Origin: Clostridia bacterium
GTDB lineage: Bacteria > Bacillota > Clostridia > TANB77 > CAG-465
Length of the DNA stretch: 64,000 nt
Reading direction: 5' to 3'
Assembly: GCA_030524345.1 (NCBI GenBank)
Contig: JAUNGP010000001.1
Span: forward strand, 130,191-194,190
Shown: positions 2,195-62,205 of the stretch, piece after piece
Layout of the letters: each line of letters starts with the position of its first letter
How positions within the stretch are numbered: position 1 is the first letter of the stretch
Made by a program: the position numbers and the translations under genes
The notes under the pieces: generated by a model
What the model saw: the letters and a program-made list of their open reading frames with translations, nothing else
Databases searched by the model: none
Told to the model about the DNA's origin: nothing

Positions 2195-4189
2195 CTACTT
2201 CCTTAAAAATCTACGCTCTATTTCATACTTAGTAATTTCATAAGCAGTTGGCCTTCCATGTGGGCAAGTAAAAGGATTATCAAGTTTTACCATATCATCT
2301 ATCAACGATATTTGTTCTTCTCTATCTAGTTTCATATTTCCTTTAACAGCGGCTTTACATGCAAGCGTTGCAATAAATCTAAATTCTTTTTCTGATTTTT
2401 CAGTCTTGTAAGCGCCAAGAAGTTCATCAATAATATCTTTAAACATAGATTTATATTCAATATCATACCCTATATTAGGGACTCCTGATATTTTTATCGT
2501 AGTATCACCAAAATCTTCAATAATAAATCCACTCTTTTCAAACATTTCTAAATTAGCATCTACCACTTCTTTTTCTTTTGAAGTAAGTTCTACAAGAATA
2601 GGAATAAGAAGCAGTTGACTTTGTTTATCTTTAGAATAATACGCTCGCTTTATTTGCTCATATAACAATCTTTCATGAGCTGCATGTTGATCTATAATAT
2701 ACATTTTTTCTTTTATTTGAATGATGATATAAGTATCAAAAACTTGTCCTATATATTTATATAATAACTCATCTTTTGGTTTTTCCTCTAAAGTTACATT
2801 ATCTTCTGATGTATATTCTTCAATATTTTTCTCATGATCAAGAAAATTTGAAGTTTGAGATGTAGTATCATACAAATTTTCTTCCATAATTTCTTCCTTT
2901 AAATCAGTAACATCTGGTAGCTTATTCTCATTAAATTCCTCCGCTTTATTTTCATTCATATCGTACGGTACCGATTCAACTATATTTGAAGAATTTTTAG
3001 ATATAGATTCCATTTTTATATCTGATGAAATATTATGAGAAACTTTCTCATTTGCCCTATCGAAATCATATTTCTTTTTTGGTTCAATAAAATTATTCCT
3101 AATAACACCATTATTAATTAAATCTTTCGAAATTTGATCAACATTTCTTTCTACTACCTCTTGCTTTATATTTGTAAATGGGCTCATCTCTTTATTATTC
3201 CTTTCAAGTGAAGTCCTTACAGCATAATATATACAATCAAATACACGAGCTTCATCATCAAATTTCACTTCCAACTTAGCTGGGTGAACGTTTACATCAA
3301 TATGTGATGGATCTATCTGCATATTTAAGACAATAAAAGCAAATTTATTAATTGCAAATTTCTGTTCACACGCCTTATCTATTGCAGTATTGATTGTTTT
3401 ATCTTTTATATATCTTGAATTAATAAAAGTAAACTGGTGCATTCTAGTAGACCTAGAAATAGAAGGCAACCCAATCATTCCACTTACTTTGATATCATTT
3501 GATTCATATTCTATTGGTATTACATTTTGATAAATTTCTTTTCCAAACAAATCATATATAATTGATCTTAAATCATTATTTCCAGAAGTTTGTAAAATTG
3601 TTTTTCCATTATTAATATATTTAAAACTAACCGCAGGATTTGCAAGTGCAATTCTTATCATAACATCTTCTATATATCCAGCTTCTGTATAATCTTTCTT
3701 TAAAAATTTAAATCTTGCTGGGACATTAAAAAATACATCATTGATTTCAATTTTGGTTCCAGTAACAGCAGGCGCACTTTCGACCGATAAGATTTTACCT
3801 GCTTCTACTCGAACTTTCACTCCAACATCTTCGTTGATACTCTTAGTCGTAAGAGTTACTTTAGATATTGCAGCAATAGAGGCTAAAGCCTCACCTCTAA
3901 ATCCCATAGAAGTGATATGTGCTAAATCTTCTTCTTTTCTAATTTTACTTGTAGCATGCCTCTCAAATGCCATTTCTACATCATCTGCTGCAAAACCAAT
4001 TCCATTATCTGTTATTCTGATATAGCTGATACCACCTTTTCTGATTTCCACAGTAACTGCCGTGGCCTTAGCATCTATAGAGTTTTCCACAAGCTCTTTT
4101 ACAATCGATGATGGCCTATCCACAACTTCACCAGCTGCAATCTTATTTATAGTTTGTTCATCTAATAATACTATATTTCCCATACTCAC
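2195..4189 (-). CDS. mutL: DNA mismatch repair protein MutL
   Basis: GHKL ATPase N-terminus (IAAGEVVDRPSSIVKELVENSIDA, ITDNGIGF); C-terminal dimerisation domain (CPHGRPT). Confidence 0.95.
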   Translation of the reverse strand: MSMGNIVLLDEQTINKIAAGEVVDRPSSIVKELVENSIDAKATAVTVEIRKGGISYIRITDNGIGFAADDVEMAFERHATSKIRKEEDLAHITSMGFRGEALASIAAISKVTLTTKSINEDVGVKVRVEAGKILSVESAPAVTGTKIEINDVFFNVPARFKFLKKDYTEAGYIEDVMIRIALANPAVSFKYINNGKTILQTSGNNDLRSIIYDLFGKEIYQNVIPIEYESNDIKVSGMIGLPSISRSTRMHQFTFINSRYIKDKTINTAIDKACEQKFAINKFAFIVLNMQIDPSHIDVNVHPAKLEVKFDDEARVFDCIYYAVRTSLERNNKEMSPFTNIKQEVVERNVDQISKDLINNGVIRNNFIEPKKKYDFDRANEKVSHNISSDIKMESISKNSSNIVESVPYDMNENKAEEFNENKLPDVTDLKEEIMEENLYDTTSQTSNFLDHEKNIEEYTSEDNVTLEEKPKDELLYKYIGQVFDTYIIIQIKEKMYIIDQHAAHERLLYEQIKRAYYSKDKQSQLLLIPILVELTSKEKEVVDANLEMFEKSGFIIEDFGDTTIKISGVPNIGYDIEYKSMFKDIIDELLGAYKTEKSEKEFRFIATLACKAAVKGNMKLDREEQISLIDDMVKLDNPFTCPHGRPTAYEITKYEIERRFLRK

Positions 4190-4194
4190 ACTCC

Positions 4195-4821
4195 TTAAAT
4201 TCCATTTAATACTTTCAATACTTCTTCTACAGTTTCTTTTATATAATAATTCATATCCTGTTTTGTAATAAAATAAATAGGATTATCATTTGAAATGATA
4301 TTATTAGTACAATATTTTTGTAAAAATTTAAAATATACCTCATCATTTAAGTAAATACTTAAATCTCTCTTTAAATTTTTGATATCAATATTATACTTGT
4401 TAACCAGGTAACCTCCCATTTTTCGATAGTCCGAATATAATTCATCTGTAAACTTTTTATTATCTTTAAAGCATCCATTTTTTAAACAAATCACTAATTC
4501 GTCATTATTTTTTACTCTCTTGACATATTTGGAAATATATTTGTCAAACCAAATTTTATCTTCAATTAAGTGTGCTAAATATCCCCTTGTTTCTTCATTT
4601 TTCAAATCTTTTCTATTTTCCAATATAAATCTTTCAATATCTGGTAATTCTTTTACACCATTGTTATATATAACTTTTTTAATATAATGAGATTCATTCC
4701 TTTGTCCCGTCTTTAATTTTATAAAGTCTGGCATAACAGTCCCAAATAAAAATTTATTTGACAAATCTAATTTCTCTTTGACTATCTTTGAAACACAAAC
4801 ATGCATTAATAAAGAACCCAT
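4195..4821 (-). CDS. hypothetical protein, possibly zinc-dependent phospholipase C-like metal hydrolase fold
   Basis: 208-aa ORF between mutL and mutS. His near N-terminus, PDF motif and HLIEDKIW resemble the PLC/YdjM-type metal hydrolase pattern. Assignment is weak. Confidence 0.35.
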   Translation of the reverse strand: MGSLLMHVCVSKIVKEKLDLSNKFLFGTVMPDFIKLKTGQRNESHYIKKVIYNNGVKELPDIERFILENRKDLKNEETRGYLAHLIEDKIWFDKYISKYVKRVKNNDELVICLKNGCFKDNKKFTDELYSDYRKMGGYLVNKYNIDIKNLKRDLSIYLNDEVYFKFLQKYCTNNIISNDNPIYFITKQDMNYYIKETVEEVLKVLNGI

Positions 4822-14676: not shown

Positions 14677-16467
14677 TTACATTCTTGGCCTCATCATTTT
14701 TTCTACATCAGCACTATTACCTATATTTGAAATAATAGAGGATACTGTAAATGTTGAGTATTGATTATCATTGATATTAATAGTATATGTTTTACCTGTT
14801 TCAAGTTTTGATGATGCAAAAACTACAGACTGATAACTTTTTGATGGTGTATATGATATTATCTCATTATTGTTAGAATCTATGATACTAAACTTTGATT
14901 TTGCATTTTGTGTACTTGAAATATTCAAATTTAAACAATTAACTGTTGAAGTATTGCTAATACATTGTGCCATTTGAGAACTGCCAACTGCAATCATTTC
15001 TCCTCCATTCATAACTAATTCATTTTCATAATCTAATGCACCATTTCCGCCATCGGATGGACCGTCAACGTAGATTATACCATCATTTATATAGATAGCA
15101 CCATTTGAATCAAGTCCATCGCCAGATGCATTGATATAAATTTTCCCACCATTAATTTCAAGTTTAATATTAGAATTATTACTAAAATTATTTTGTCCTG
15201 GTCTTCCCATGGTAGAAGAACTATCATTTCCGCCTGCAACATTTATACCATCATCTGAGGAAACAATATTAAATTCGCCATTATTTATTGTTATATTATT
15301 TGCTTCAATACCTTCATAAGATTTAGTAATATCAATTTTCCCACCATGAATTGTAACAGTGTCATCAGCATGAATTCCATCATCCCCTGATTCTATTTTT
15401 ATGTTTGGATTAGTAATTTCTATTGTTCCATTAGAATGTATTGAATCATCTGCTGAATTAATATTAATTTCACCACTCTTTATACTTATACTTTTTTGAG
15501 CTTTGATACCTTTGTAACTTCCTGTATCTTCTGTTGTATCTTCATTTTGAAAGTTTGAATTTCTTGGATTTATAAATTTACCTCTTACAAAAATATCAGT
15601 TGTAGTTCCTATTTTTGTAGAATTTTCACTTCCACCTCCTGATAAAATATTAATATTTCCATTCTCAATTAAAATATAATTCTCCGCTTGAATGCCATCA
15701 TGTTCAGAGGTTAAATTGAGTGTGCCATTTTCTATTTCAATATAACCTTTTTCAGTTTCTACTGAATTGGTTGATTTGATACAATCATTTTGAGCTTCAA
15801 TAGCAATGTTACCATCTTTTATTTTAATACTATCTTTTCCTTTTATTCCATTATTCATAGCTGTTACGGTATAAGTTCCTGATATAATCTTTAAATCATC
15901 TTTTGAAACAATACCATCTTGATATATGCCCTCAATATTTAAAGAACCATATCCGTTAAAAGTAAGGTCATCTTTTGCATAAATGGTTGCAGAAGCTTCT
16001 AAATCAGAATAGGTTAGAGAATCTTTTAAACTATTATTAGTATTCTCATCTAATGTTATAATCACTTTATCTGCATTCTTTACATATATAGCTGGTCCAT
16101 CCGTACTTTCAATTGTAACGTTTTTAAAGATAAGTCGTACTATTTCTTCTGTTTCTATATTTATACTTCCAGCTAAATGTCCTGTCAAAATATATATTCC
16201 ACTTGATTTTATTGTAGCCATATTTCCATTTACATTTACATTTGAACTATCTACATTTATACTATCTCCATTAAGTTCAATACTAATAGCAACGGACTCA
16301 TCATATGTAGGATCATTTTCATCATAATTTGAAAGTAGATCAAAGCCAGTGTTATTTTCACTTATATTCTTATTTTTTACTAAAGACACGCTAACAATAA
16401 CAGCAGTAATTAATAATACTATTATAATGATTACAACCACTACGTTTTTTTTATTTATTTTTTTCAT
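14677..16467 (-). CDS. membrane-anchored parallel beta-helix repeat protein (carbohydrate-binding-domain type, as found with VTC/DUF4956)
   Basis: N-terminal TM helix. Many repeats of the type DDGI/DGIxxxxxxxIxxGxxxI (for example SGDDGIHADDTVTIHGGKIDI, SSDDGINVAGG). Confidence 0.6.
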   Translation of the reverse strand: MKKINKKNVVVVIIIIVLLITAVIVSVSLVKNKNISENNTGFDLLSNYDENDPTYDESVAISIELNGDSINVDSSNVNVNGNMATIKSSGIYILTGHLAGSINIETEEIVRLIFKNVTIESTDGPAIYVKNADKVIITLDENTNNSLKDSLTYSDLEASATIYAKDDLTFNGYGSLNIEGIYQDGIVSKDDLKIISGTYTVTAMNNGIKGKDSIKIKDGNIAIEAQNDCIKSTNSVETEKGYIEIENGTLNLTSEHDGIQAENYILIENGNINILSGGGSENSTKIGTTTDIFVRGKFINPRNSNFQNEDTTEDTGSYKGIKAQKSISIKSGEININSADDSIHSNGTIEITNPNIKIESGDDGIHADDTVTIHGGKIDITKSYEGIEANNITINNGEFNIVSSDDGINVAGGNDSSSTMGRPGQNNFSNNSNIKLEINGGKIYINASGDGLDSNGAIYINDGIIYVDGPSDGGNGALDYENELVMNGGEMIAVGSSQMAQCISNTSTVNCLNLNISSTQNAKSKFSIIDSNNNEIISYTPSKSYQSVVFASSKLETGKTYTININDNQYSTFTVSSIISNIGNSADVEKMMRPRM

Positions 16468-17147
16468 TATAATTCCATCACTCCTTCTTGAGCATGCATA
16501 AGTGTAACATTTAAGTTCCCATTTCTTATTCTTATCTTATCTAAAAAATCTTTTTCATTTTTATCATTTTTTAATATTATATTATATGTTATTTCATACA
16601 TACTTCCCATATTAATAGTTTTTACTTTTTCAAGCATTGAATTTTTAGTATACTCTTCCATAATATCTTCAAAAACAGAAGTATAGTCCAATTCTTCAGG
16701 TATAACAATTTTCAATTTCTTTTCATTTCCTCTTTGTGCACCAAAATTAGTTTTATATAATAGGATTAAGATAAAAGAAATAATAAGTGTAATACCAATA
16801 GAAAAGACAATATACCCCATACCTATTGCAAGTCCAATCGCCATTGCAAAGAATACACTTACTATTTCCTTAGAATTTCCAGGTATACTCCTAAATCTAA
16901 CAAGTCCAAAAGCGCCTAATACAGCAACAGATGTCCCTAAATTTCCATTTACCATCATAATCACCACTTGCACTAAGGCTGGCAATATTGCAAGAGATAT
17001 TATAAAATTCTTTGTATACTTACTTGTATACATATGAACCAAAGCAATAATCATACCTAAAATCAATGATACTAACATACATATCATTAAATTTGTAATA
17101 CTAAGTGTACTTGTCACATTTTCTAAAATACTATCGAACATAAACAT
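16467..17147 (-). CDS. DUF4956-like polytopic membrane protein
   Basis: 226 aa with four or five TM helices and a soluble C-terminal domain. Shares one nt with the downstream gene. Sits after a VTC-domain gene, as in the conserved VTC-DUF4956 pairing. Confidence 0.55.
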   Translation of the reverse strand: MFMFDSILENVTSTLSITNLMICMLVSLILGMIIALVHMYTSKYTKNFIISLAILPALVQVVIMMVNGNLGTSVAVLGAFGLVRFRSIPGNSKEIVSVFFAMAIGLAIGMGYIVFSIGITLIISFILILLYKTNFGAQRGNEKKLKIVIPEELDYTSVFEDIMEEYTKNSMLEKVKTINMGSMYEITYNIILKNDKNEKDFLDKIRIRNGNLNVTLMHAQEGVMEL

Positions 17148-17156
17148 TCCCCCTAT

Positions 17157-17855
17157 TTACTTTTTACTATTAATTTTTTTATATATTTCTCCATACTTTG
17201 AAAAGGAAACCGGATATATCTTTAATTCATTTAAAATCTTAACAAACCATATTGGAATAGCACTACAAGATTTTATTTCCATAATTCTTATATCTTCTTC
17301 AAAAAAAAGTTCTCCTTCATCCCCATATGTTAAATCTAAATCATTTAATCTACTTCTAAGATTTTTATCAAAAGTAATTCTAATGTCTTCTGATTCTCTT
17401 AAATAATATGAATCTCTATCATATGCAACCATAATTTTAGGAACCAGTTGATATTTCTTAAAAGCATAATCTATTTCATTATATATTTGAAGATTTTCTA
17501 TATTATCTAGTTTTCCCTTTGCTATATATTTTTGAAAAGTTTTTAGCTTAACTGCTATCCTCCTCTTAGTGACAACACCAAGACATTTTCTTTTTAATTC
17601 TAAAAAAACTTTTGAGTTCTCATTTGGAATATCATAGCTTCTAATCCTAATCTTTTCTTTATATGTAGGCTTTTGAATAGATTTTATTGCCAATTCATAA
17701 GAATCTGTGTCATAATATATATTTAATATTTTACTATGTGGATATTCATTTTCCACCAGTTCAGATTCTATTCTTTTCATTAAAATATCATATATTTTAT
17801 CAGTTAACATATATTTTTCTTCTACTCTTTTAAATACTTTCTGATAGATAGCCAT
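17157..17855 (-). CDS. VTC-domain (CYTH-like triphosphate tunnel, polyphosphate-polymerase-like) protein
   Basis: 232 aa starting YQKVFKRVEEKYML. Alternating basic residues on beta strands (KEKIRIRSY, LELKRK, VTKRR) are typical of VTC/CYTH tunnels. Confidence 0.6.
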   Translation of the reverse strand: MAIYQKVFKRVEEKYMLTDKIYDILMKRIESELVENEYPHSKILNIYYDTDSYELAIKSIQKPTYKEKIRIRSYDIPNENSKVFLELKRKCLGVVTKRRIAVKLKTFQKYIAKGKLDNIENLQIYNEIDYAFKKYQLVPKIMVAYDRDSYYLRESEDIRITFDKNLRSRLNDLDLTYGDEGELFFEEDIRIMEIKSCSAIPIWFVKILNELKIYPVSFSKYGEIYKKINSKK

Positions 17856-20143: not shown

Positions 20144-20227
20144 ACAATCACCTATTCCATTTATATGAATTAAATTTTCATATAATACGACAAAAGGTTA
20201 TGAGTTTTTCTCATAACCTTGTAACTT

Positions 20228-20593
20228 TTATAACCAACTATCCTCCTGAACAATGCTAATCCTCTCTTCTTCATCTATTACTTTTTCTACTGTAATATTG
20301 ATCAATTCTCTGATATCAAGCTCTGAACGACTTTCACAATTCCTTTCATAGAGTTTATCTAGTTTCTTAGTCCAATATCCAATTTCGCGTGCTGTAAATT
20401 TTAGATGCACACTTGTTGCATCATGGTTATCTGTAAGAGTTTCTATCCCTGTTACCTCAAAATAGTAATTCTTCTTATGATATTCAATTTTAAAAATATC
20501 TTTTAATTGATACATTGTATCAGAATAGAATATAATATCTATTCCACTTAATGTATATTTCACATCTCTAATTTTATTATCCAATATCCACAT
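20228..20593 (-). CDS. hypothetical protein (last gene downstream of the VirB4-like cluster)
   Basis: 121-aa ORF with GGAGGA RBS, followed by hairpin AAGGTTATGAG-TTTTT-CTCATAACCTT (about 20190-20220). Confidence 0.5.
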   Translation of the reverse strand: MWILDNKIRDVKYTLSGIDIIFYSDTMYQLKDIFKIEYHKKNYYFEVTGIETLTDNHDATSVHLKFTAREIGYWTKKLDKLYERNCESRSELDIRELINITVEKVIDEEERISIVQEDSWL

Positions 20594-20670
20594 AATTCAT
20601 ATCCTCCTATTTAAAAGTTCTTAAATAATATAAAATTTTTTTAGGATTATATCATGCGAATATTTCTATG

Positions 20671-21303
20671 TCAAATTGTTTTTAAAATAACAAGTACTAT
20701 GAGCCTTATAACTTTACTCCATAATAAATTAATTACAAATAGAGGCATTAAACACTTTATTTTAAATTGATAAATACTCATTATGAATTCCATATTTTTA
20801 TTATCAACTTTATCTTGTAAATATTCTTTTGCTATTTTGATAGAGCCTATAACAGCATCAAATTCTAAAATCATTCTTAAAATCGCTGAAATGATTACTA
20901 CCAATATATATAAATATATGTTGATATAACTAACTTTTTTCAAAAGCCATAATATGATATTAATACAAAAGATAATTAATTCAATATTTGATAAAATAAA
21001 ATTTAATTTTTGTAATATCTTTGATTGAACAGAGTGTCTAGCCTCATGTGCAATCAACACGATTCTCGAAGAATCTTTTATCACTTTTTCTCTATTTGAT
21101 AAATAAATAGTATCATTTAGATAAACATAATAGCTATTTTTGATATCAGAATCTAGTACAATCTTCGTTTTATGATTATCGAGTTTTTCTAAAATTTCAT
21201 GAGTGACTTCTTCGTTAATAGGCAATTTACGAATCTGCTCATTTATTTTTTGAGATAATACTGAATTTTTATTAAAAGAACTGAATTTTTCTTTTACTTT
21301 CAT
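20671..21303 (-). CDS. membrane protein with HExxH zinc-metallopeptidase-like motif
   Basis: LIAHEARHSVQS motif followed by three hydrophobic helices. Starts immediately after the stop of the upstream YlbF-like gene. Confidence 0.45.
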   Translation of the reverse strand: MKVKEKFSSFNKNSVLSQKINEQIRKLPINEEVTHEILEKLDNHKTKIVLDSDIKNSYYVYLNDTIYLSNREKVIKDSSRIVLIAHEARHSVQSKILQKLNFILSNIELIIFCINIILWLLKKVSYINIYLYILVVIISAILRMILEFDAVIGSIKIAKEYLQDKVDNKNMEFIMSIYQFKIKCLMPLFVINLLWSKVIRLIVLVILKTI

Positions 21304-21642
21304 TTAGAATTCTGCTATATCCTTTATTCCATTTGCAATTATTTTCTGCATATCAGCTAGTAATACATTGATTCTAATCTCAGATTCTAATAATTGCCTA
21401 CAAGCTTCATTTTTAGTAAGTTCAGCATACAAGTCTTGCATCTGCTGTAATTCATTTTCAGGAATTTCTTTTCCTTCTAGATATTTCATATGATGTTCTT
21501 GCTGTTTCGTCTTAAATTTCTTTAATTTTTCATAAGTTACATCATCTTTTTTTATTTCTTCTTTTAAGCTTAAAAATGTTTTATACTCATTTGTTTCTTT
21601 TAAGGCTTTAATTAACTCATGTATCTTATCATGAAAATTCAT
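21304..21642 (-). CDS. YlbF/YmcA-family (Com_YlbF-like) regulatory protein
   Basis: About 112-aa all-helical protein (MNFHDKIHELIKALKETNEYKTFLSLKEEI...). The ATG at 21642 is preferred over the track start at 21681. Confidence 0.5.
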   Translation of the reverse strand: MNFHDKIHELIKALKETNEYKTFLSLKEEIKKDDVTYEKLKKFKTKQQEHHMKYLEGKEIPENELQQMQDLYAELTKNEACRQLLESEIRINVLLADMQKIIANGIKDIAEF

Positions 21643-21719
21643 ATCATCACATCCTTTAAAGAATATTATATAACAAAACAATGTAAAAGCAAATAACTTT
21701 TTTTATTTTTATAAATCTT

Positions 21720-22469
21720 CTATATACTACTACATATTTGCATTTGTAATTCAGAGAGTTTATCTTTTTTATTGTTAATAAGTTGTGTCATATTTTGTAT
21801 GACATTGTTTTGATTCATGCACTCACTATCAAAATTTATATTACTTTTCTTTTTATTTAAGACATTAGCAATATGATTAATTGATTCTAAGTCAAATTTA
21901 TCATATGCTTGATACCATTCATTGCATGCATTTTTGAAATCATCAATTTTTTTCACACACTTTGTTAATCCCGCATTAATTTTATTTAAAAATTCATTAC
22001 TCATTATAAAGTCTTTTACCTTATCAAAGAAATCCTTTATATATACTGAATATACATTTTCACCAAGATACTTTTTCGATATAATTTCTATACTTGCATT
22101 AATTCCTTCTCTTAGTCCTCCAGAAACTGCTATATCTTTTATTTTAGATATGTCTTTTAATATTTCTTTAGGAAGTGATAAAACTTCTAAACCCTCTCTA
22201 ATACTACTATTTACAGCAGTTTTTAAAATCTCTTTGACATCTTTTGTTTTCAGTGAATCCTTAACATCTATTAATATATCTTTAATATGATTATTGATAG
22301 GCATTCCCCTTATAACATAATTTGCACCTTTATCAATAACATTTTCCACAATATTTGCGAATTCATTTCTATTTTTTACTAAATCTAAATCTATTTTGGA
22401 ATCTAAATCCAAATTTTTATCTACTTTATTATATGTACTAAGTTCTATTATATTTTCCAATATTATCAA
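21720..22469 (-). CDS. hypothetical helical protein of the VirB4-like operon
   Basis: 249-aa ORF overlapping the upstream ATPase gene by 4 nt (translational coupling). No TM segment and no motif recognised. Confidence 0.55.
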   Translation of the reverse strand: MIILENIIELSTYNKVDKNLDLDSKIDLDLVKNRNEFANIVENVIDKGANYVIRGMPINNHIKDILIDVKDSLKTKDVKEILKTAVNSSIREGLEVLSLPKEILKDISKIKDIAVSGGLREGINASIEIISKKYLGENVYSVYIKDFFDKVKDFIMSNEFLNKINAGLTKCVKKIDDFKNACNEWYQAYDKFDLESINHIANVLNKKKSNINFDSECMNQNNVIQNMTQLINNKKDKLSELQMQICSSI

Positions 22470-23608
22470 ATCCTTTCTAAACTTTCTTTCAGTCTTTTAT
22501 ATTTTTCCAGATACGTATTTAACTTACTTTTTATATGAAACATTTTAGATATTTCTTCAAACTCATAATCTAATGCAAATTCTGATATTGCTCCATTAAT
22601 ATAACTTTCAATATTTTTTCCATAATAAATTTTTCCAACAATTTTATATTCAGATAGCAAAGATTTCATTTGAGAAATCTCTAATGATCCCATTTTTATT
22701 TCATTTACAATAATAGATAGATTTTTATTGCCCAATTTTTCTAAATAATTTAAACTTCTTCTTACACTTAAGTAATTAGGTTTTACAATAAAAAAAATAT
22801 CTGTTACTCTCTCTAACCAAAATTTAGTGTATTCGTCAAATAAATCAGAAGATAAATCAATTATCAAATATTGATAATTCTTTAATAAAAATTTATATAA
22901 GCAATCTATCTTTTTCTTACTAAATTTTAAATTTTTACATGGCTTATTAATAACATAAGTTACACCTAATTTTTTTATTAGAAAATTACTAATGCCACTA
23001 TTATCATTTTGAATATATTGATGAAATGCCTTATTGTTACTATCTAAATTATTTAATATATCAATACTTGGATTTTCCATATTCATATCTAGTAATACTA
23101 CATTTTCACCTATATTTTTTACTAGATCTTTTGCAAGAAGAGTACTAGTCAAGGATTTTCCTACACTGCTTGTCCCACATATTCCAATGACCCTTCTTTT
23201 TTTATCATTTATATCAATATGATCAATATTTCTATATACTATACTTTGTGGATTATCAATATAATGTGTTAATATTTCAAAATCTATTGTATTTCCCTCA
23301 ATTATATTAAATACTTCATTTGCAAAAAGGAACTCCTTATATTCTTGGGTTAATTTATCTACAATATATACAATTTTAGACTTTTCACTTGCAAGTCTTA
23401 ACTGTTTTATATATAGCTTCTTATCTATATTTCCTTGTAATGTGTCTTTTGTAATCACAATAAAAGCCTCTTTTTTACTACTTAAAAATTCAATCACATT
23501 CTCCATACAATTAATGTCATGAATATATACCCTATTTTTATATCTTCTATCTAATCTTAACTTTATTTCTTTATTACCTATTGCCAATAATATTTTAATA
23601 ACTATCAC
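22466..23608 (-). CDS. TadZ/CpaE-like ParA/MinD-family ATPase with N-terminal pseudo-receiver domain
   Basis: Deviant Walker A IGICGTSSVGKSLTS at about residue 142, Walker B-like YLIIDLSSD. The N-terminal approx 120 aa are receiver-like but lack the acidic pocket (KILLAIGNKE). Confidence 0.65.
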   Translation of the reverse strand: MIVIKILLAIGNKEIKLRLDRRYKNRVYIHDINCMENVIEFLSSKKEAFIVITKDTLQGNIDKKLYIKQLRLASEKSKIVYIVDKLTQEYKEFLFANEVFNIIEGNTIDFEILTHYIDNPQSIVYRNIDHIDINDKKRRVIGICGTSSVGKSLTSTLLAKDLVKNIGENVVLLDMNMENPSIDILNNLDSNNKAFHQYIQNDNSGISNFLIKKLGVTYVINKPCKNLKFSKKKIDCLYKFLLKNYQYLIIDLSSDLFDEYTKFWLERVTDIFFIVKPNYLSVRRSLNYLEKLGNKNLSIIVNEIKMGSLEISQMKSLLSEYKIVGKIYYGKNIESYINGAISEFALDYEFEEISKMFHIKSKLNTYLEKYKRLKESLERI

Positions 23609-25346
23609 CTTCTATTAAATTTCTTTCATATTCACTAGCTTTAATATTAAGTGTCGTAATATTATTCTTAAAACTAATGACTGCCTCTCCTTTATCTAAT
23701 TTCATTAGTTCATTAATTTCAACACTATTGATAACACCAAGTTTTTTTAATATTTCACTTCCCAAATAATCAACCTTAAAAAACATTTTAAAGCAACAAT
23801 TATTTAAAATACTTTTCCCATAATTTCCATTTTCAAATGCAAAAAAATCCGTAATATCTTGAGTAATTGTAACGATACCTGCATTATTTTTCCTTATCGT
23901 TTTAAATAGCATGAATATAACACTTGAAATATTTTCATCACTAGTATTATTTACATATCTCCATACTTCATCTATATAAATTATTGTTTTATTTTTATTA
24001 GAATGATTCTTTAAATAGGATGCCATCTTCTCTAGTATGAATTTTATAACTAAATTATTAATATTTCTGGTATCAAATAAAATAAGTTTATTATGAATAT
24101 CCACATTTGTATATGTAGAAAAGCACTTTAATTTTGTTGTAAATACTTGTCTTAGTTTAATTGTTAACTCTTCTGGCATTTCATAATTTAAAATATCTGT
24201 AAGAATGGGAAAATCATTTGTATCTTTAATAACCTTATCTATATATATGCTATTTTTATCGCTAATCTTATATAATGATCGTATATCAAAGGTAATATTT
24301 TTACTTTTATATGCATTTATGATTGCACTATGTAAATAGCTTATATCTTCATCACTTTCTATATTAATTATTTTCTTCAATATTTCTAATACTTCATTGA
24401 TTTTTTGTTTTACTACATTACTTCCAAATCTATTGATGTCTAAATCAAAAATTTGCATGATATTAATATAAGTATTTTCACTCAAAGAAAATACTTCTCC
24501 ATTAATCATTTTGATAAAATGATTATATTCTCCTTCAGGATCAAATATATATTGTACTTTGGAATTCATATATTCTTTAAATATCATAAGTTTTGTAAAA
24601 AAAGATTTACCCGAGCCACTACTTCCAAATATACACATATTAGAATTAAAATATTTATTACTAAAAATATCTATATTAAACAGTTTATTATCATTTTTTG
24701 TCATCCCAAATATAATGCCATTCTCATCAAAAACATTTTTCGTATAAAATGGGAAAAAGTTAGTAACGCAAGATGTTGTCATACTTCTATAATTCGTTTT
24801 TAGTATTCTATTTTTATTATCATTTAATGGAAGATTTAAAAGATAAGCATCTAAATGCCTAAAATTACTTATAATTGAAACAATCTGTTTAGAAAAAAGT
24901 TTTGTTTGAAATGATTTTAAAATTTGTAATAGCTCTGACTTATCGATAGAATAAAATGTTATAATAAAAGAAAGATTATATATTTCTTCATTGTTAATTT
25001 GGATCTCTCGCCTTAAATTCTTAGCATCATCTTTTGATTTGTTTAAAATATCAATATCTACCTGATTTTTACTTATAGTATTAATTTCTGCTGAAGAAGA
25101 GGAAATATAATAAGTCAACTCTTTAAGAAATTTCATAATGTCTTGTTTTTGAAGGAACATGGATATATCATATGAAAAATTTTTAGGAATTGTCTCTATT
25201 AAATCTAAAAAAAATGATTTTTTAGGATATTCTTTTATAATTAAACTTGATATATATTTATTATCAACTTTAATATATTTAAAATCAATATTTTCAATAT
25301 ATGATGGTAAAATATTTAAATTATCTTGTTCATCTATATTAAACAT
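23595..25346 (-). CDS. VirB4-family (Firmicute conjugation ATPase-like) protein, C-terminal three quarters including the ATPase domain
   Basis: Walker A CIFGSSGSGKSFFTK, FDPEGEY, Walker B IIYIDEVWRY, GIVTITQDITDF. These lie in the order and spacing of Gram-positive VirB4/Orf16-type ATPases. Confidence 0.8.
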   Translation of the reverse strand: MFNIDEQDNLNILPSYIENIDFKYIKVDNKYISSLIIKEYPKKSFFLDLIETIPKNFSYDISMFLQKQDIMKFLKELTYYISSSSAEINTISKNQVDIDILNKSKDDAKNLRREIQINNEEIYNLSFIITFYSIDKSELLQILKSFQTKLFSKQIVSIISNFRHLDAYLLNLPLNDNKNRILKTNYRSMTTSCVTNFFPFYTKNVFDENGIIFGMTKNDNKLFNIDIFSNKYFNSNMCIFGSSGSGKSFFTKLMIFKEYMNSKVQYIFDPEGEYNHFIKMINGEVFSLSENTYINIMQIFDLDINRFGSNVVKQKINEVLEILKKIINIESDEDISYLHSAIINAYKSKNITFDIRSLYKISDKNSIYIDKVIKDTNDFPILTDILNYEMPEELTIKLRQVFTTKLKCFSTYTNVDIHNKLILFDTRNINNLVIKFILEKMASYLKNHSNKNKTIIYIDEVWRYVNNTSDENISSVIFMLFKTIRKNNAGIVTITQDITDFFAFENGNYGKSILNNCCFKMFFKVDYLGSEILKKLGVINSVEINELMKLDKGEAVISFKNNITTLNIKASEYERNLIEGDSY

Positions 25347-25861
25347 TCTTTATGAAAGCTTTCATATAATAGTTTTTCAATATTTTGCTTTCCAATTAAT
25401 CTATTTACCACACATCCAAGTTTATTTAATTTTTGAAAAGTTAAATCAATTTCCTCTATATTCATATTTTTTTGCTCCATACTTAATATAACATAGTATT
25501 TTGTGATATATATTTTTTCATTATTTAATTTTTCTTTTATATCAATCAAATAGTCACTTAAAAACTTCTTAAATTTCTCGTTATTCTGTGTTAAAATGCT
25601 TTCTTTTAGGTTTGTAATATAATTTTCAACATTCATTTTTCTATTTTGTATATAAATTTGTATATCCAAATTCATTTCTCTTAAAAATTCGTTATATACC
25701 ATATATATGCTATTTTGTACTTCTATAGAAAAATCAAGTAATGTAACTGGTATCACTTCATAAATATATTTCTTATAAAACTTATTATCACTTTTTGTTA
25801 AAATATATTCATCATTAATATTATTGATTTTATAAATTTCTTTGATATCTTTAAATTTCAG
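25334..25861 (-). CDS. VirB4-family N-terminal domain fragment (separate ORF, 13-nt overlap with the ATPase ORF)
   Basis: Track ORF 25334-25756 starts at GTG. The frame stays open upstream to a CTG at 25861 placed 9 nt after GGAGGG. The sequence (KFKDIKEIYKINNINDEYILTKSDNKFYKKYIYEV...) is colinear with the VirB4 N-terminus. Confidence 0.55.
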   Translation of the reverse strand: MKFKDIKEIYKINNINDEYILTKSDNKFYKKYIYEVIPVTLLDFSIEVQNSIYMVYNEFLREMNLDIQIYIQNRKMNVENYITNLKESILTQNNEKFKKFLSDYLIDIKEKLNNEKIYITKYYVILSMEQKNMNIEEIDLTFQKLNKLGCVVNRLIGKQNIEKLLYESFHKECLI

Positions 25862-25909
25862 TGTATTTTTCCCTCCAATCTTTCTTAAAGATACAAAATT
25901 CCCAAAAAT

Positions 25910-25995
25910 AGATTATCATTTTATTTTTCATAAGTCAATAGTTATGTAATATATTTTCGTCGCAAGTTTCGACAAATAGTTGTTTTTTTGTCGTA
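25910..25995 (-). promoter_or_regulatory. promoter of the VirB4-like operon with upstream Spo0A-box-like sites (shared divergent control region)
   Basis: Minus strand: TTGACT (25938-25933), 17 nt, TAATCT (25915-25910) with TG extension. Upstream are TGTCGAA (complement of 25968-25974) and CGACGAA (complement of 25956-25962). On the plus strand TGTCGTA lies at 25989-25995. Confidence 0.5.
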
Positions 25996-26069: not shown

Positions 26070-26243
26070 ATGAATAATGATTCTAAAGAAATGAATACAA
26101 TGCTAAATTCAAAACTTATAGAATTACTATCTACAATTGATAAAAATAAAATCGAACAAGTAACAAAGATGGTTCAAAATATGTCTAGTGAAGATTTAAA
26201 CAATTTAGTTAGAATGCTTGGAAAAAATTCAAATAATAAATAA
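26070..26243 (+). CDS. small hypothetical protein (57 aa), below ORF-track cutoff
   Basis: AGGAGATGATTATATG start. Translation MNNDSKEMNTMLNSKLIELLSTIDKNKIEQVTKMVQNMSSEDLNNLVRMLGKNSNNK. First gene of the plus-strand operon. Confidence 0.5.
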   Translation: MNNDSKEMNTMLNSKLIELLSTIDKNKIEQVTKMVQNMSSEDLNNLVRMLGKNSNNK

Positions 26244-26248
26244 AAATT

Positions 26249-26701
26249 ATGAATAATGAAAATAACAATGTAGAAAATTCATCTACAGACAATTCAAAAG
26301 CATTATCTGATTTAATTCAAAGTATCCAAGCAAAAATGGAACCTGAAGAAATAAAAAGTATACAGGAAGAGCCAAAAGAAGAAAACAATAATTTAAATTC
26401 GATTCTAAGTAATTTAGATATTTCTTCTCTTTTAAGTGCGTTTGGCAATAATACAAGTGAAAATAGTAATAATAGTAATAATAACCATAGTTTTTCTGGA
26501 ATAGATCCAAATTTATTATTCAAAATTCAAAAAATCATGTCATCAATGTCAAAGGAAGATCCTAAAAAAAATTTACTGCTTTCCTTAAAGCCATTTCTTA
26601 GGAAATCTAGACAAGACAAAATTAATGAATACATATCTATGCTTACAATTGTTAATGCAATAGAAGTTTTTAGTGATAAAGGTAGTGATAAAAATGTTTA
26701 A
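26249..26701 (+). CDS. hypothetical protein with low-complexity N/S/E-rich N-terminus and conserved-looking C-terminal helix region
   Basis: 150-aa ORF. The C-terminal part (IDPNLLFKIQKIMSSMSKEDPKKNLLLSLKPFLRKSRQDKINEYISMLTIVNAIEVF) resembles a small protein family common in Clostridia, from memory only. Confidence 0.5.
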   Translation: MNNENNNVENSSTDNSKALSDLIQSIQAKMEPEEIKSIQEEPKEENNNLNSILSNLDISSLLSAFGNNTSENSNNSNNNHSFSGIDPNLLFKIQKIMSSMSKEDPKKNLLLSLKPFLRKSRQDKINEYISMLTIVNAIEVFSDKGSDKNV

Positions 26702-27119
26702 TGAAAATCCATATTATAGAAATTATCGTTATAGTAACTATTATCGATATAATAACAGTTTTATTCCTACCTACTATCCTAATAAAGATTATAAAGTAGA
26801 AAGTGAAAAACATTCAGATTCTTCTATACAAAATCCTGCTGAAGAAAATCAAGAGACATATGTAAAAAAAGAAGAAAAAAAAGAATAAGTTCCAAAAAAT
26901 GATTTTGATTCTTCTTCTAAAAAACAATTTCGATTAGGACCTTTTTCAATCAATGACAATTCTATAAATCTCTTTGGATTTAATATTGCAATAGATGATC
27001 TTATCATAATAGGTCTTATTCTCTTACTACTCTTTCAATCAGAAACAGACTATATCATAATTATTATTCTTGGTCTAATATTATTAAATATTGATTTTAG
27101 CAGTTTAAATCTTTTTTAG
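26695..27119 (+). pseudogene. small Y/N-rich protein gene with hydrophobic C-terminus, interrupted by one in-frame TAA (26886-26888)
   Basis: ATG at 26695 overlaps the upstream stop. The frame stops at TAA 26886-26888 and continues open, in the same frame and with no start codon, for 76 more codons to TAG 27117-27119 (…FRLGPFSINDNSINLFGFNIAIDDLIIIGLILLLLFQSETDYIIIIILGLILL…). Confidence 0.45.
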
Positions 27120-27258
27120 TATCCTTTAAACTGCTATAATATTTGACTAGCAATTTATCTATTTCAACACTTGTTTTATATATTACCTCATAAGGTTCAT
27201 TATCCTGAATTTGTTTTTCTAACTTTAATTTTAATTTATCTATATCATCTAACAACAT
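27097..27258 (-). CDS. Spo0E-family aspartyl-phosphate phosphatase-like small protein (53 aa), below ORF-track cutoff
   Basis: AAGGAAGTTGATTATATG start. Translation MLLDDIDKLKLKLEKQIQDNEPYEVIYKTSVEIDKLLVKYYSSLKDTKKDLNC. The helix-hairpin and the S-x-E-I/L-D-K-L-I/L-x-x-Y pattern resemble Spo0E/YisI/YnzD. Confidence 0.55.
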   Translation of the reverse strand: MLLDDIDKLKLKLEKQIQDNEPYEVIYKTSVEIDKLLVKYYSSLKDTKKDLNC

Positions 27259-27283: not shown

Positions 27284-27353
27284 CTTATACCATCTTTGTA
27301 TAAGGTTGTCAATATTTGTAATATATAATTCGATCGCAAATTTCGACAAAATG
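27284..27353 (-). promoter_or_regulatory. promoter of the spo0E-like gene with Spo0A-box-like sites, paralogous to the VirB4-operon promoter
   Basis: Minus strand TTGACA (27312-27307), 17 nt, TATAAG (27289-27284). Upstream is TGTCGAA (complement of 27342-27348) and a second GCGATCGAA element. Confidence 0.5.
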
Positions 27354-27434: not shown

Positions 27435-28748
27435 TTATTTCGATATCACTCTGGATACTACCATAAATTTATCATCAAGTAAGTTTAAAAATTCTTTTAT
27501 ATCTTTTACACTGATTTCATTTAAAGATTTAATATCCTGATAAATAGGAGTATCATCTAATATTGATTCTATGATTCTTCTATAACTAATATTTAAATTA
27601 TCGGCAGATGAAACAATACTACCTATTTTTTTTCTTTTGATAAGTTCAAATAATTCTTCATCAATATCCAAATTTTTTATTTCATTTATATACTTAATAA
27701 TGTCTTTCTCCAATTCATTTATTTTAGTCGTATAAGAACTTATTATGATATGTGAAAAATATTTACTTCCTTCATAATCAAAAGAAATTGGTTCTACAAT
27801 TTTTCCATCATTATACTCCTTCTCAAAAAACGGAGTTAGTTTTGAAAAAAACATATCGGATATCATATTACATATGACTTCTCTTTTTAATATTTCTTCT
27901 TTTGTTACCACATCCAATTTATAGCCAATACAAAGCTGTGGCATATGTATATCCATTTTTTGTTCTATTCTCTTCTCACATATTTGTCTATCTTCCAATT
28001 CAATATACTTTTCTATTTGGCTCTTTTCTGCTAAATTATCATAATCTTTCTCATATTTTTTAATATTATTCTCAATTCTTTGAACAGTTTTTTCTACATC
28101 CACATCACCAACTACTAGAAAAAACATATTTTGAGGGCTATAGAAAGTATTATAGCAAGTATATAACAACTCTTTGGTTATATGAGATATAGAATCTATT
28201 GTTCCTGCGATATCGATTCTGATAGGATGTGTTTTATACATTGCTCTAAGAGCATTAAAATATACCATAAAACCAGGATCATCATCATACATGCTAATTT
28301 CCTGACCAATAATTCCTTGCTCTTTTTCAACATTCTCGTCAGTAAAATAAGGTTCCTTTATGAGCTTAACTAACATATCTATCGAGTCATTAAATTTTTC
28401 TATTGTTTCAAAATAATATACTGTATGATCAAAAGAAGTATAAGCATTGGAAGATACACCCATCTTAGAAAATAAATCTAGAGCATTAGCTCCCTCTTTC
28501 TCAAATAATTTATGTTCTAAAAAATGAGCTATTCCATCTGGAACTTTAATTCTTTTATTAGTCTTTATATCAACAAATTCATTCATTAATGATCCATATT
28601 TAGTTCCATACATTCCTATTTTTTTACTAAATCCATCTTTTTTACATATATAAACAGTTAAACCATTTTTTAGTTTCGTAACATATGTTTTTTCTCCAAG
28701 TTCTAAAGACTCCTGTATTTCAAATTTATACATTAATTTCACCTCCAA
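27435..28748 (-). CDS. M16-family zinc peptidase (insulinase-like, active subunit, YmfH-like)
   Basis: HFLEHKLFE inverted zinc motif (HxxEH); about 430 aa; paired with a second M16 gene. Confidence 0.8.
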   Translation of the reverse strand: MEVKLMYKFEIQESLELGEKTYVTKLKNGLTVYICKKDGFSKKIGMYGTKYGSLMNEFVDIKTNKRIKVPDGIAHFLEHKLFEKEGANALDLFSKMGVSSNAYTSFDHTVYYFETIEKFNDSIDMLVKLIKEPYFTDENVEKEQGIIGQEISMYDDDPGFMVYFNALRAMYKTHPIRIDIAGTIDSISHITKELLYTCYNTFYSPQNMFFLVVGDVDVEKTVQRIENNIKKYEKDYDNLAEKSQIEKYIELEDRQICEKRIEQKMDIHMPQLCIGYKLDVVTKEEILKREVICNMISDMFFSKLTPFFEKEYNDGKIVEPISFDYEGSKYFSHIIISSYTTKINELEKDIIKYINEIKNLDIDEELFELIKRKKIGSIVSSADNLNISYRRIIESILDDTPIYQDIKSLNEISVKDIKEFLNLLDDKFMVVSRVISK

Positions 28749-29988
28749 GTAAAAATATTTTTTCAGGTTCTACTCTTTGAGCAACATCAACTACATCTTG
28801 CATTGTCACCTTTCTAATTTTTTCTCTCATATCTTCAATCGTCATATTCTCTTTTCCAAAAGAAATTGTATTTGACATTTTCATCTTAGAAATAGCTATT
28901 TTAGAGTCATTCCACTCTAATAAATCAGCCAATAAACTCTCTTTTGCAGATTCAAATTCTACATCCGTTATATTTCCTTGCTTCATATCTTCTACTTGCT
29001 TTAATATCAAATTCTTCGCCTTTTCATAATTTTCAAGTTGTATTCCAGCATAAATAACAAATATGGGCTTAAATCTATAATATCTTGATCTTACTGTATA
29101 AGCTAAAGATTCTTTTTCTCTAACATTTTGAAATAGTTTAGATGATGGTGTCCCTCCAAGTATTGTATTATATACATTAAATGCAAAATATTCCTCTATT
29201 TTAAAATCCTTTATTCTCATTCCAAGTGATAAAACACTTTGTGCTGTATCTTGAGTTTCTTTGATTTCTTCAATTCTATTAAATATATGATTTGTACATA
29301 CATCATAATTTAAGTTCTTTAATAAAATATCATGATTTAATTTTTCAGCAAACACGCTTTTTACTTCATCCTCTAGATTATCATATCCATCCAAATTTCC
29401 TGATAATAACACGACAACACATGATTGATTGATAACTTCATGATATCTTTTATATAATGCCTCAGCAGTTATTTGTTCAATAATGTCTTCATCTCCATAT
29501 AAATTAAAGCCAAACGCTTCGTCTGGACATAAAATTTCTTCCATTCTTTGTACAGAATATCTTAGTTTATCATCTTTTCTTGTTTTTATAATATCTAAGA
29601 TTGCTAGTTTTTCCCTTAAAACAATACTCTCATCAAACTTTCCATTCACTAAATATGGATGATAAATAATATCATATAAAAAATGAATACAATCTTTTGA
29701 CACATCAATATTTTTAGGTAAGAATTTCTTATTAACAAACTCTATTCTAAATTCGATATTATATAGATCTCCTAACTTTTCAATATTTACATTAAAATCT
29801 GCTCCATAGAGACTATATAAATGTCTCTCTATTTCTTTTTGAGATCGATATTTATCACACGCCTTACCTAGTACTGATCCAAGTACTGAATTTTGTGAAT
29901 TCTCTACTCTATTTACAGGCATTATAAAGTTATAAGATAAATATACACTCTTAAACTTTTCATCATTAATCTTATAAATATTTGACAT
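28726..29988 (-). CDS. M16-family peptidase-like protein (non-catalytic partner, YmfF-like)
   Basis: 420 aa with M16 fold-like sequence but no HxxEH motif. Overlaps the downstream M16 gene by 23 nt. Confidence 0.7.
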   Translation of the reverse strand: MSNIYKINDEKFKSVYLSYNFIMPVNRVENSQNSVLGSVLGKACDKYRSQKEIERHLYSLYGADFNVNIEKLGDLYNIEFRIEFVNKKFLPKNIDVSKDCIHFLYDIIYHPYLVNGKFDESIVLREKLAILDIIKTRKDDKLRYSVQRMEEILCPDEAFGFNLYGDEDIIEQITAEALYKRYHEVINQSCVVVLLSGNLDGYDNLEDEVKSVFAEKLNHDILLKNLNYDVCTNHIFNRIEEIKETQDTAQSVLSLGMRIKDFKIEEYFAFNVYNTILGGTPSSKLFQNVREKESLAYTVRSRYYRFKPIFVIYAGIQLENYEKAKNLILKQVEDMKQGNITDVEFESAKESLLADLLEWNDSKIAISKMKMSNTISFGKENMTIEDMREKIRKVTMQDVVDVAQRVEPEKIFLLGGEINV

Positions 29989-51221: not shown

Positions 51222-53153
<1,932 letters not shown>

Positions 53154-53215
53154 TATGTTTGAAGTGTATGTTAATATTTTTTAATATACACTTTTTACTT
53201 TTTTTATGGAAATAG

Positions 53216-53244
53216 TTGACAAAATAAAAATAATTATGTATAAT
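53216..53244 (+). promoter_or_regulatory. consensus sigma-A promoter of the infC-rpmI-rplT operon
   Basis: TTGACA (53216-53221), 17-nt spacer, TATAAT (53239-53244) with a TG extension. Confidence 0.7.
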
Positions 53245-53249
53245 ATAGT

Positions 53250-53375
53250 ACGTAAGTAGAGGAAATCTTCTCACCTTACGAGTTTTGTCTTAGTAAGGTT
53301 ATACATTAAAATATTTATTTAAGAGTATTAGTATGTATTATGAGAGGATTGCCCGTTACAAGAGCAATCTTTTTT
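53250..53375 (+). promoter_or_regulatory. infC operon leader (L20-leader-like) with attenuator terminator
   Basis: About 125-nt untranslated leader with stem CGTAAG...CTTACG and a terminal hairpin GATTGC-loop-GCAATC plus T6 (53346-53375), just before the infC RBS. B. subtilis controls this operon by L20-dependent termination. Confidence 0.5.
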
Positions 53376-53388
53376 ATATAGTTTTTTT

Positions 53389-53913: not shown

Positions 53914-53938
53914 TAGTGTTTAGGGAGGAGAGATTATT

Positions 53939-54136: not shown

Positions 54137-54166
54137 TAATTACATTAAGGAAGGGGAGAATTAAAA

Positions 54167-54514: not shown

Positions 54515-54532
54515 TAAATTAGGAGGTACTTT

Positions 54533-62131: not shown

Positions 62132-62205
62132 TAAAATAACATTTCTCTGTCAAAGTTTTACAAAAAAAATAACCCAAAATTATTATAATAAGTCTAGGTG
62201 ATTAT

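Follow-up and report, generated by a model that had tools for sequence, protein, structure and literature searches.

A 64,000-nucleotide stretch of the Clostridia bacterium contig JAUNGP010000001.1 (positions 130,191 to 194,190; hereafter the window) carries, close to its replication origin, four mutually overlapping genes on the minus strand (21720-25861) that encode a VirB4-family ATPase split over two proteins (VirB4N and VirB4C), a TadZ-like ParA/MinD ATPase and an all-helical protein, p249. Comparison with relatives supports well the view that these genes constitute a domesticated, vertically inherited VirB4/TadZ/p249 module whose ATPase sites are intact, and also that the promoter preceding them is of the type predicted to be activated by Spo0A. 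Leaving the substrate aside, we lean towards a module derived from conjugation and Tad ATPases and switched on by phosphorylated Spo0A (Spo0A~P). Full-text literature searches targeting this module found no published description of it, in line with an earlier, sequence-only reading of this DNA that had taken the system to be undescribed. The sole paper co-mentioning VirB4 and sporulation concerned a conjugative transposon, and the members of the module appear in databases as 'hypothetical', 'DUF87 domain-containing protein', 'type IV secretory pathway VirB4 component' and 'MinD-like ATPase'.

The split VirB4 ATPase and its operon partners

The four genes overlap one another in the order VirB4N-VirB4C-TadZ-like-p249 and thus form a tight operon:

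25334-25861, minus strand: VirB4N, 175 aa, N-terminal part of a split VirB4 ATPase; its stop codon overlaps the start of VirB4C
23595-25346, minus strand: VirB4C, 583 aa, the rest of the VirB4 N-domain and the ATPase domain
22466-23608, minus strand: TadZ-like ATPase, 380 aa from a GTG start, a pseudo-receiver followed by a ParA/MinD domain; overlaps both neighbours
21720-22469, minus strand: p249, 249 aa, a conserved all-helical protein

VirB4C carries the motifs GSSGSGKS, FDPEGEY, IIYIDEVW and ITQD and has the Walker A motif, Walker B motif and arginine finger of the FtsK/HerA-type P-loop domain by which VirB4 is recognized. It matched the NCBIfam models VirB4_plasma (4e-50) and conju_CD1110 (3e-46), the alignment starting only at a model position of at least 191, as well as Pfam P-loop_TraG/AAA_10/DUF87 and PDB entry 4AG5, the solved VirB4 C-terminal domain (9e-23). 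VirB4N alone gave no profile match. When the two proteins were concatenated, however, they were colinear with positions 103-893 of the VirB4_plasma model, and the score rose from 170.4 to 187.6 bits (+17). VirB4N also aligned to residues ~28-141 of a canonical 849-aa VirB4 from a contig resembling an integrated conjugative element (ICE) (tblastn, E 2e-6), and in one syntenic relative both halves form a single 726-aa protein (P0230). On the basis of the colinear hidden Markov model alignment, the match to a canonical N terminus and the fused orthologue, we conclude that VirB4N is the missing N-terminal part of VirB4, so that the VirB4-specific N-terminal domain is supplied by a separate open reading frame (ORF), as the sequence-only reading had proposed. 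For the N halves in loci L037 and L041, the precomputed Pfam assignments list a TraC-like family. We rejected the idea that the N/C split is a frameshift pseudogene, since more than 100 homologues are equally short, the split recurs across lineages and a fused form exists.

The Walker A and Walker B motifs, the R485/arginine-finger region and the QD motif are invariant in 31 family representatives sharing 29-46% identity, a pattern that points to purifying selection. VirB4N of the window starts with CTG (25859-25861), 9 nt after GGAGGG, and in about half of the lineages (L001-L032) the gene starts at a near-cognate ATT, ATA or CTG codon, against which IF3, the product of infC, discriminates. 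Because of such starts, gene callers often truncate or miss VirB4N; in L030 they cut it to 69 aa.

The TadZ-like protein matched Pfam CbiA and is a ParA/MinD-type P-loop protein. Its AlphaFold (AF2) model (predicted local distance difference test score, pLDDT, of 84.8) has an N-terminal five-stranded alpha/beta domain. The top and sole full-length Foldseek match of this model was 3FKQ from Eubacterium rectale (E 5.7e-9), which we take to be the published TadZ structure, while MinD, FlhG and ParA cover only its C-terminal 220 residues. To judge from the modelled fold, the protein thus has the two-domain ATPase layout of TadZ/CpaE over its full length, which bears out the earlier assignment. It gave no match to Pfam TadZ_N, and its Walker A motif, GTSSVGKS, lacks the lysine that marks the deviant form of this motif. 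An alternative start may lie at an ATT codon (23597-23599). Profile and structure searches therefore agree with the assignment of the two ATPases to VirB4 (profiles and 4AG5) and TadZ (3FKQ).

The AF2 model of p249 is all-helical (pLDDT 87). The protein had no match in Pfam, NCBIfam or PADLOC, nor in the PDB by sequence, and Foldseek returned no match to the model in PDB or BFVD; a marginal PHROG match (E 0.0057) is of unknown function. A relationship of p249 to T2SSF-like proteins or to proteins of the L037 cluster was considered and dropped, as hhalign gave nothing usable. No transmembrane segments were found in the four core proteins, all of which are soluble.

Conservation at core-genome positions and the likely source

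We examined 29 species genomes and several metagenome contigs, all carriers of the module being uncultured organisms, and compared 31 loci by all-against-all ORF clustering. VirB4N and VirB4C were present in all 31 loci and p249 in 26, while the TadZ-like gene clustered in 17, to which reading of the sequences adds at least 3. The conserved core is therefore VirB4N, VirB4C and p249, with or without TadZ, and not the string of seven genes seen in the window. Word-indexed and exhaustive searches defined a family of short VirB4C proteins (540-610 aa, >200 bits, 29-47% identity, ~50 clusters at 50% identity), whereas canonical VirB4 proteins of 770-1000 aa appear only below ~200 bits, at 24-28% identity. 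All matches in plasmids (n = 643) and phages (n = 26) were at most 27% identical.

More than 30 species-level relatives have the module at fixed places in the core genome, with ORFs intact down to ~30% identity. In the window clade the order is yfmF-yfmH, a Spo0E-like gene, a divergent gene unit, VirB4N-VirB4C-TadZ, p249, ylbF, p210, cwlD and tadA; L030 has the same order, and there sleB and spmAB follow and flank the locus. In ~20 distant species (~35% identity), VirB4N-VirB4C-(TadZ)-p249 lies between gyrB and gyrA, within the dnaA-dnaN-recF-gyrB-gyrA cluster. The p249 proteins of the window clade and of this gyrB clade are homologous (hhalign 98.9%, E 2e-17). In the window itself, which has a GC content of ~27%, the GC skew switches sign at ~46 kb and dnaA starts at 46393, followed by dnaN, recF and gyrB. 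The module is thus ~20 kb from dnaA, and the claim that it is origin-proximal holds. Here gyrB neighbours infC and efp rather than gyrA (51237-55090), and the 64 kb contain no gyrA-sized ORF. As the module sits exactly at the gyrB/gyrA junction in the distant clade, a rearrangement there may have relocated it.

In sister lineages, a T2SSE gene encoding a VirB11/TadA-type ATPase and a T2SSF gene encoding a TadB-like membrane protein directly follow the TadZ-like gene and separate it from p249 (L003-L006, L021, L033 and L036). This arrangement agrees with the named tad gene order, tadZ-tadA-tadB, and in several of these lineages a CapA-like gene comes after p249. The ATPase and membrane protein genes are gone from L001, L002, L030 and the window, and the whole gyrB clade is without the pair. 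ORFs of 77 aa in L036 were tried as pilins and rejected, as they derive from the C-terminal end of a T2SSE gene broken by a frameshift and from what is left of a CapA gene.

We found no other part of a conjugation or pilus machine beside the module. A tblastn search of the 64 kb for relaxase, MobC, coupling proteins, type IV secretion system (T4SS) pilin, PrgI-like, polytopic, T2SSE, T2SSF and CapA proteins gave matches only to the module's own genes, to soj and to a generic M23 peptidase domain (27% identity, ~58215-58514). The 64 kb held no integrase, and the window contained no homologue of the channel parts of L035 and L037 (VirB6-like polytopic, VirB3/PrgI-like and VirB8-like proteins) or of a dedicated cell-wall hydrolase. 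Relaxase, coupling protein, VirB6 and integrase were likewise not seen in the syntenic core loci, so that the earlier statement that other conjugation genes are lacking applies to the window and to more than 30 syntenic loci. Consequently, none of the marks of a conjugative T4SS is present, that is, a coupling protein with a relaxase, a channel with a hydrolase, and location on a mobile element. The TadA/CpaF ATPase and TadB/TadC platform that mark a Tad system are also absent from the window, and no Flp pilin, prepilin peptidase or RcpC/CpaB was recognized in the window or syntenic loci, although very small pilin genes could escape recognition. A search for att-like flanking repeats gave only AT-rich chance matches, one of them with an arm within cwlD, and the absence of flanking repeats noted before is thus upheld. 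The claim of a core-like base composition stood only in part: at 22.1% GC, compared with 27.8 ± 3.4% for the average ORF, the module is somewhat richer in AT than the DNA around it but remains within the range of window genes.

Homologues of the module were found in larger clusters. L035 is ICE-like, with a canonical VirB4, relaxase, MobC, coupling protein, T4SS pilin and M23 peptidase. L037 (1-12946), the parts of which were assigned from weak Pfam matches, starts with polytopic proteins, a PrgI-like protein, split VirB4N/C, a TadZ-like protein and an RcpC-like protein and continues with a second ParA, a T2SSE ATPase, two polytopic proteins and two pilin-like small proteins. Its VirB4C is 30% identical to that of the window; it has no counterpart of p249, which is present only in the chromosomal modules. 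In L040 (1-7523), a coupling-protein fragment lies 5' of the split VirB4 and TadZ-like genes, and a scan of this contig gave no perfect TGTCGAA box. Both L037 and L040 are uncharacterised clusters that resemble a T4SS/Tad hybrid machine, and such larger T4SS/Tad-hybrid clusters, which hold relatives of ~30% identity, are the likely source of the module. Since L037 and L040 combine a split VirB4 with TadZ, the N/C split and the VirB4-TadZ pairing predate the chromosomal module, and the pairing is inherited from the source clusters and did not originate at this locus. Orthologous loci were not found inside ICEs, and only homologues of ~30% identity occur in T4SS-like clusters; we therefore call the module domesticated rather than decayed.

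Spo0A-type promoters and the genes around the module

Two promoters in this region, one preceding VirB4N and one preceding a Spo0E-like gene, carry the same tandem Spo0A-box (0A-box) element:

25955-25975, minus strand: tandem 0A-box element, with a perfect TGTCGAA at 25968-25974 and a degenerate second box, TGCGACGAAA, starting 10 nt downstream
25910-25938, minus strand: sigma-A-type promoter, with a -35 TTGACT (25933-25938), a 17-nt spacer and a TG-extended -10 TAATCT (25910-25915)
27097-27258, minus strand: Spo0E-like protein, 53 aa, downstream of yfmH
27284-27350, minus strand: promoter of the Spo0E-like gene, with TGTCGAA (27342-27348), TTGCGATCGAA, 16 nt, a -35 TTGACA (27307-27312), 17 nt and TATAAG

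Read 5' of VirB4N on the minus strand, the order is TTTGTCGAAACTTGCGACGAAA, 17 nt, TTGACT, 17 nt and TAATCT. In the 64 kb, TTGTCGAAA occurs twice, compared to 0.32 expected occurrences, and the two copies are those of the VirB4 and Spo0E-like promoters. TGTCGAA is the core 0A box for Spo0A of both B. subtilis and C. difficile, the consensus box predicts binding of C. difficile Spo0A, and the predictive value of the 0A box in Clostridia is documented (PMC3485338).

A two-box element before the TTGACA -35 of VirB4N was also found in L001, L002, L005 and L030, and in the gyrB clade in L007, L008, L011, the L013 group, L019 (TGTCGAATTTTGACGAA), L022, L025 and L027, with near-matches in L015, L016 and L028. 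The distance from the boxes to TTGACA is 9 nt in the gyrB clade versus 19 nt in the window clade, a shift of one helical turn. Thus the sequence-only reading, which had pointed to Spo0A-box-like sites in the promoter, is extended to a perfect box with a second box, in phase with the -35 and kept in at least 13 lineages and two genomic contexts, though not at all loci. TGTCGAA occurs 41 times in the 1.11 million strand-positions of the window and collected relatives, and about half of these occurrences are the promoter sites described here. Suitably placed consensus boxes and their conservation in orthologous promoters are the two signs from which membership of a Spo0A regulon is predicted, and both are seen in these sequences.

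The Spo0E-like gene adjoins the module in L036 and L038 as well as in the window clade. Seven of eight orthologues matched Pfam SpoOE-like (best E 5e-7), the window copy scoring 18.4 bits, and the boxes of its promoter are retained in L033 and L036. A Spo0E-like gene equipped with 0A boxes could provide a Spo0A-driven negative feedback on Spo0A~P. Together with the YlbF-family gene and cwlD described below, it makes for a well supported set of neighbours that modulate or depend on Spo0A.

The other features of the region to which we refer are as follows:

21304-21681, minus strand: YlbF/YmcA-family protein (Pfam Com_YlbF 1e-21), with a probable ATG start at 21642
20671-21303, minus strand: p210, 210 aa, a putative metalloprotease judged from alignment and hydropathy, with an invariant HExxH and a weak DUF6782 match
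20228-20593, minus strand: p121, 121 aa, poorly conserved, with a homologue only in L001
26070-27119, plus strand: divergent three-gene unit of p57 (26070-26243), p150 (26249-26701) and a Tyr-rich tail-anchored protein (26673-27119)
53389-53913: infC
62206-63018: spoIIGA
63015-63722: sigE

The host can be read as a sporulator from its gene content, namely, spoIIGA-sigE and the cwlD match in the window. For the cwlD product, a spore-cortex amidase encoded near the module with tadA beyond it, the top model was CwlD at 213.9 bits, slightly below the cut-off of 221.55. In the spoIIGA promoter (62140-62206), an 0A box with one mismatch, TGTCAAA, directly adjoins a TTTACA -35, and an unusually long spacer of 21 nt separates this -35 from TATAAT, a layout that recalls the Spo0A-dependent spoIIG promoter of B. 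subtilis. We had looked there for a perfect 0A box as an internal control, and finding only TGTCAAA and a long-spacer promoter makes this suggestive but not decisive.

The YlbF-family gene is separated from p249 by a 38-nt gap and keeps its place beside the module in L036 as well as in the window clade. p210 has an HExxH...E motif and about three transmembrane segments and is conserved beside the module in the window clade only, where it always adjoins cwlD and the YlbF-family gene; it is a candidate sporulation-linked membrane metalloprotease. The earlier identification of a YlbF-like regulator, an HEARH membrane protein and a 121-aa ORF was thus correct. p121 has its own perfect TTGACA-17-TATAAT sigma-A promoter (20646-20674), of the extended type and located inside the end of p210, and a hairpin with an 11-bp stem (20194-20220) follows the gene, before cwlD. 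With its own promoter and a downstream hairpin, p121 is an independent small transcription unit and probably lies outside the module. Accordingly, of the longer operon described in the sequence-only reading, the four tight genes from VirB4N to p249 stand, and p121 probably does not belong to it.

The divergent unit accompanies the module in L036, L038 and the window clade and is absent from the gyrB clade. In the window, its Tyr/Asn-rich tail-anchored gene is interrupted by an in-frame TAA (26886-26888), while L001, L002 and L030 have unbroken orthologues of 147-167 aa; the interruption may mean a pseudogene, an error in the sequencing or a gene divided in two. In L009, a gyrB-clade relative, two genes (2617-4774) are inserted between VirB4C and the TadZ-like gene and, read by eye, resemble a MurT-like Mur ligase and a GatD-like amidotransferase (peptidoglycan amidation). 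The M16-family pair adjoining the module (27435-29988) encodes YfmH/YfmF-family proteins, a family associated with the 5-aminopentanol modification of EF-P, and efp itself is at 54533-55090, across the origin from yfmF/yfmH. An overlapping pair at 16467-17855 on the minus strand encodes a VTC-domain protein and a DUF4956 membrane protein.

Proposed function, rival explanations and known systems

We propose that the module is a chromosomally fixed remnant of a T4SS/Tad-pilus hybrid set that would have kept only its cytoplasmic energising parts. Phosphorylated Spo0A would bind the boxes and directly activate the sigma-A promoter, in which case the module would be made at the stationary-phase transition or the onset of sporulation. 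The translationally coupled VirB4N and VirB4C would assemble into the usual hexameric ATPase. TadZ/CpaE and VirC1-type ParA proteins position their machines, and the TadZ-like protein may in the same way place the VirB4 motor at the pole or the asymmetric septum. p249 could be an adaptor or a cargo, and ATP hydrolysis would power the assembly or translocation of a substrate. As the TadA-type ATPase and TadB-like platform are lost in the window lineage, the motor would have to rely on membrane partners encoded elsewhere or else do its work in the cytoplasm. A narrower version of this proposal is a hitherto unrecognised sporulation-onset machine of a large clade of uncultured small-genome gut Clostridia, in which a VirB4 motor and the new-fold protein p249, positioned by TadZ and switched on by Spo0A~P, would serve a polar or septal step such as origin capture or septal translocation for which these lineages would have no Bacillus-type factors; this we put forward tentatively, as a doubtful elaboration.

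Several observations weigh against the proposal. The VirB4 scores miss the NCBIfam equivalog cut-offs (187.6 versus 590 bits for VirB4_plasma and 161 versus 325 for CD1110), and because all family scores are far under the curated cut-offs, the protein belongs to a divergent VirB4 subfamily. Searches with p249 yielded no functional clue, and no channel, pilin or substrate could be identified, which makes 'translocation' an analogy. The spo0A gene is not in the 64-kb window. The 0A-box promoter before VirB4N is missing in L003, L004, L006, L021, L033, L036 and L038 and also in some gyrB-clade loci, e.g., L017, L018 and L029; L038 is a short contig ending inside the gene after VirB4C, and most of the loci retaining the TadA/TadB pair are box-less at this place (L003, L004, L006, L021, L033 and L036). 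Finally, the neighbour-joining tree places the cluster-embedded L037 and L040 inside the family, so that a single domestication is not proven. This tree has a near-zero stem and no bootstrap, and we did not rely on it for family monophyly either.

The same parts under the same control could instead serve a stationary-phase surface or transport job, such as DNA uptake or release or a filament, with unlinked pilins and membrane proteins and with Spo0A acting as a general transition-state regulator. The relatives that keep the VirB11/TadA-type ATPase and T2SSF-like platform in tad gene order, the RcpC-like and pilin-like genes of L037, the conserved proximity of YlbF, a member of a competence-regulator family, and the existence of domesticated DNA-uptake T4SSs (ComB and Ced/Ted) all fit such a role. 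However, no pilin, prepilin peptidase, channel or DNA-binding component was found beside the core-context modules, the window and the whole gyrB clade are without the TadA/TadB pair, and the neighbours are the sporulation genes Spo0E-like, cwlD, sleB and spmAB, and we consider this explanation rather unlikely. Less probable still is a role in handling the chromosome origin at sporulation, in which the TadZ-like ParA and the VirB4 motor would capture or anchor oriC at the pole, as RacA does in Bacillus. Such a role would account for the origin-proximal position, which recurs in two arrangements (at gyrB/gyrA in ~20 species and ~20 kb from dnaA here), and it would suit a ParA-family partner, the predicted Spo0A-type control and the soluble core proteins. 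Against this, no DNA-binding domain was detected in any component (Pfam, NCBIfam), many gyrB-clade loci have no TadZ-like gene, the position can also be put down to a single ancestral insertion and a later rearrangement, and we know of no VirB4 protein that is a chromosome motor.

That the module is no more than a functionless, decaying relic of an integrated conjugative element is suggested by its closest canonical relatives, which are VirB4 proteins of ICEs and plasmids, by deeper family members that adjoin a coupling protein or PrgI-like gene, by its AT-rich composition relative to the surroundings and by the loss of the Tad ATPase and platform in the window. Decay is nevertheless hard to reconcile with ORFs that stay intact and keep their place in the core genome across more than 30 species, down to ~30% identity, with invariant catalytic residues and a conserved regulatory element, and with the lack of integrase and att-like repeats, and we regard it as very improbable. 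We hold an anti-phage defence system built on a HerA/VirB4-like ATPase to be scarcely credible: it draws on PADLOC matches to mad8 (4e-18) and HerA models, but no partner has an effector domain (nuclease, Sir2 or TIR), and the locus has a fixed core-genome position instead of lying in a variable island and carries a sporulation-type promoter. PADLOC gave generic P-loop matches only, where a defence system would be called from an effector together with a specific model, and this assignment was rejected.

VirB4 is the universal T4SS ATPase and is usually regarded as meaningless without a channel. If the proposal of a domesticated, Spo0A-switched module is correct, it would represent a clear exaptation of a conjugation motor into a developmental programme, in a VirB4 clade that has long been kept channel-less, and would add new members to the predicted Spo0A regulon in the human and mouse gut microbiota. 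The four-gene operon, the cis element and the invariant catalytic residues offer handles on the onset of sporulation in Clostridia without Bacillus factors.

Among known systems, the VirB4 of the window resembles the conjugative VirB4 proteins of Gram-positive bacteria (CD1110/Mbov_0397; PrgJ, TcpF, ConE and Tn916 Orf16) in its colinear N and C domain order and common ATPase motifs. It differs from them in its low identity (24-30%), its usual division into two ORFs, the lack of an accompanying coupling protein, relaxase, VirB3/VirB6/VirB8-like proteins and cell-wall hydrolase, its fixation in the core chromosome and its Spo0A-type promoter. With the TadZ/CpaE proteins of Tad (type IVc) pili, the TadZ-like protein shares an atypical receiver joined to a ParA/MinD ATPase; unlike Tad loci, the window encodes neither TadA or TadB/C nor a Flp pilin, a prepilin peptidase or RcpC. 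The L037 and L040 clusters likewise have split VirB4N/VirB4C genes directly followed by a TadZ-like gene but, unlike the window, also contain coupling-protein fragment, PrgI-like, polytopic, RcpC-like, second ParA, T2SSE and pilin-like genes. Domesticated T4SSs are represented by the ComB DNA uptake system of H. pylori and the archaeal Ced/Ted DNA import systems; these too keep a VirB4-family ATPase for a host function outside a conjugative element, but they retain channel and pilus components, of which the window keeps none. The SpoIIIA-SpoIIQ channel, in which SpoIIIAA is a T2SSE-family ATPase, offers a parallel as a secretion-system ATPase recruited into the sporulation programme, and it differs from the module in its ATPase family, in its control by sigma-E rather than Spo0A and in its eight membrane components. 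Taken together, the parts of the module belong to known families, and the system they make up fits neither the definition of a T4SS nor that of a Tad system.

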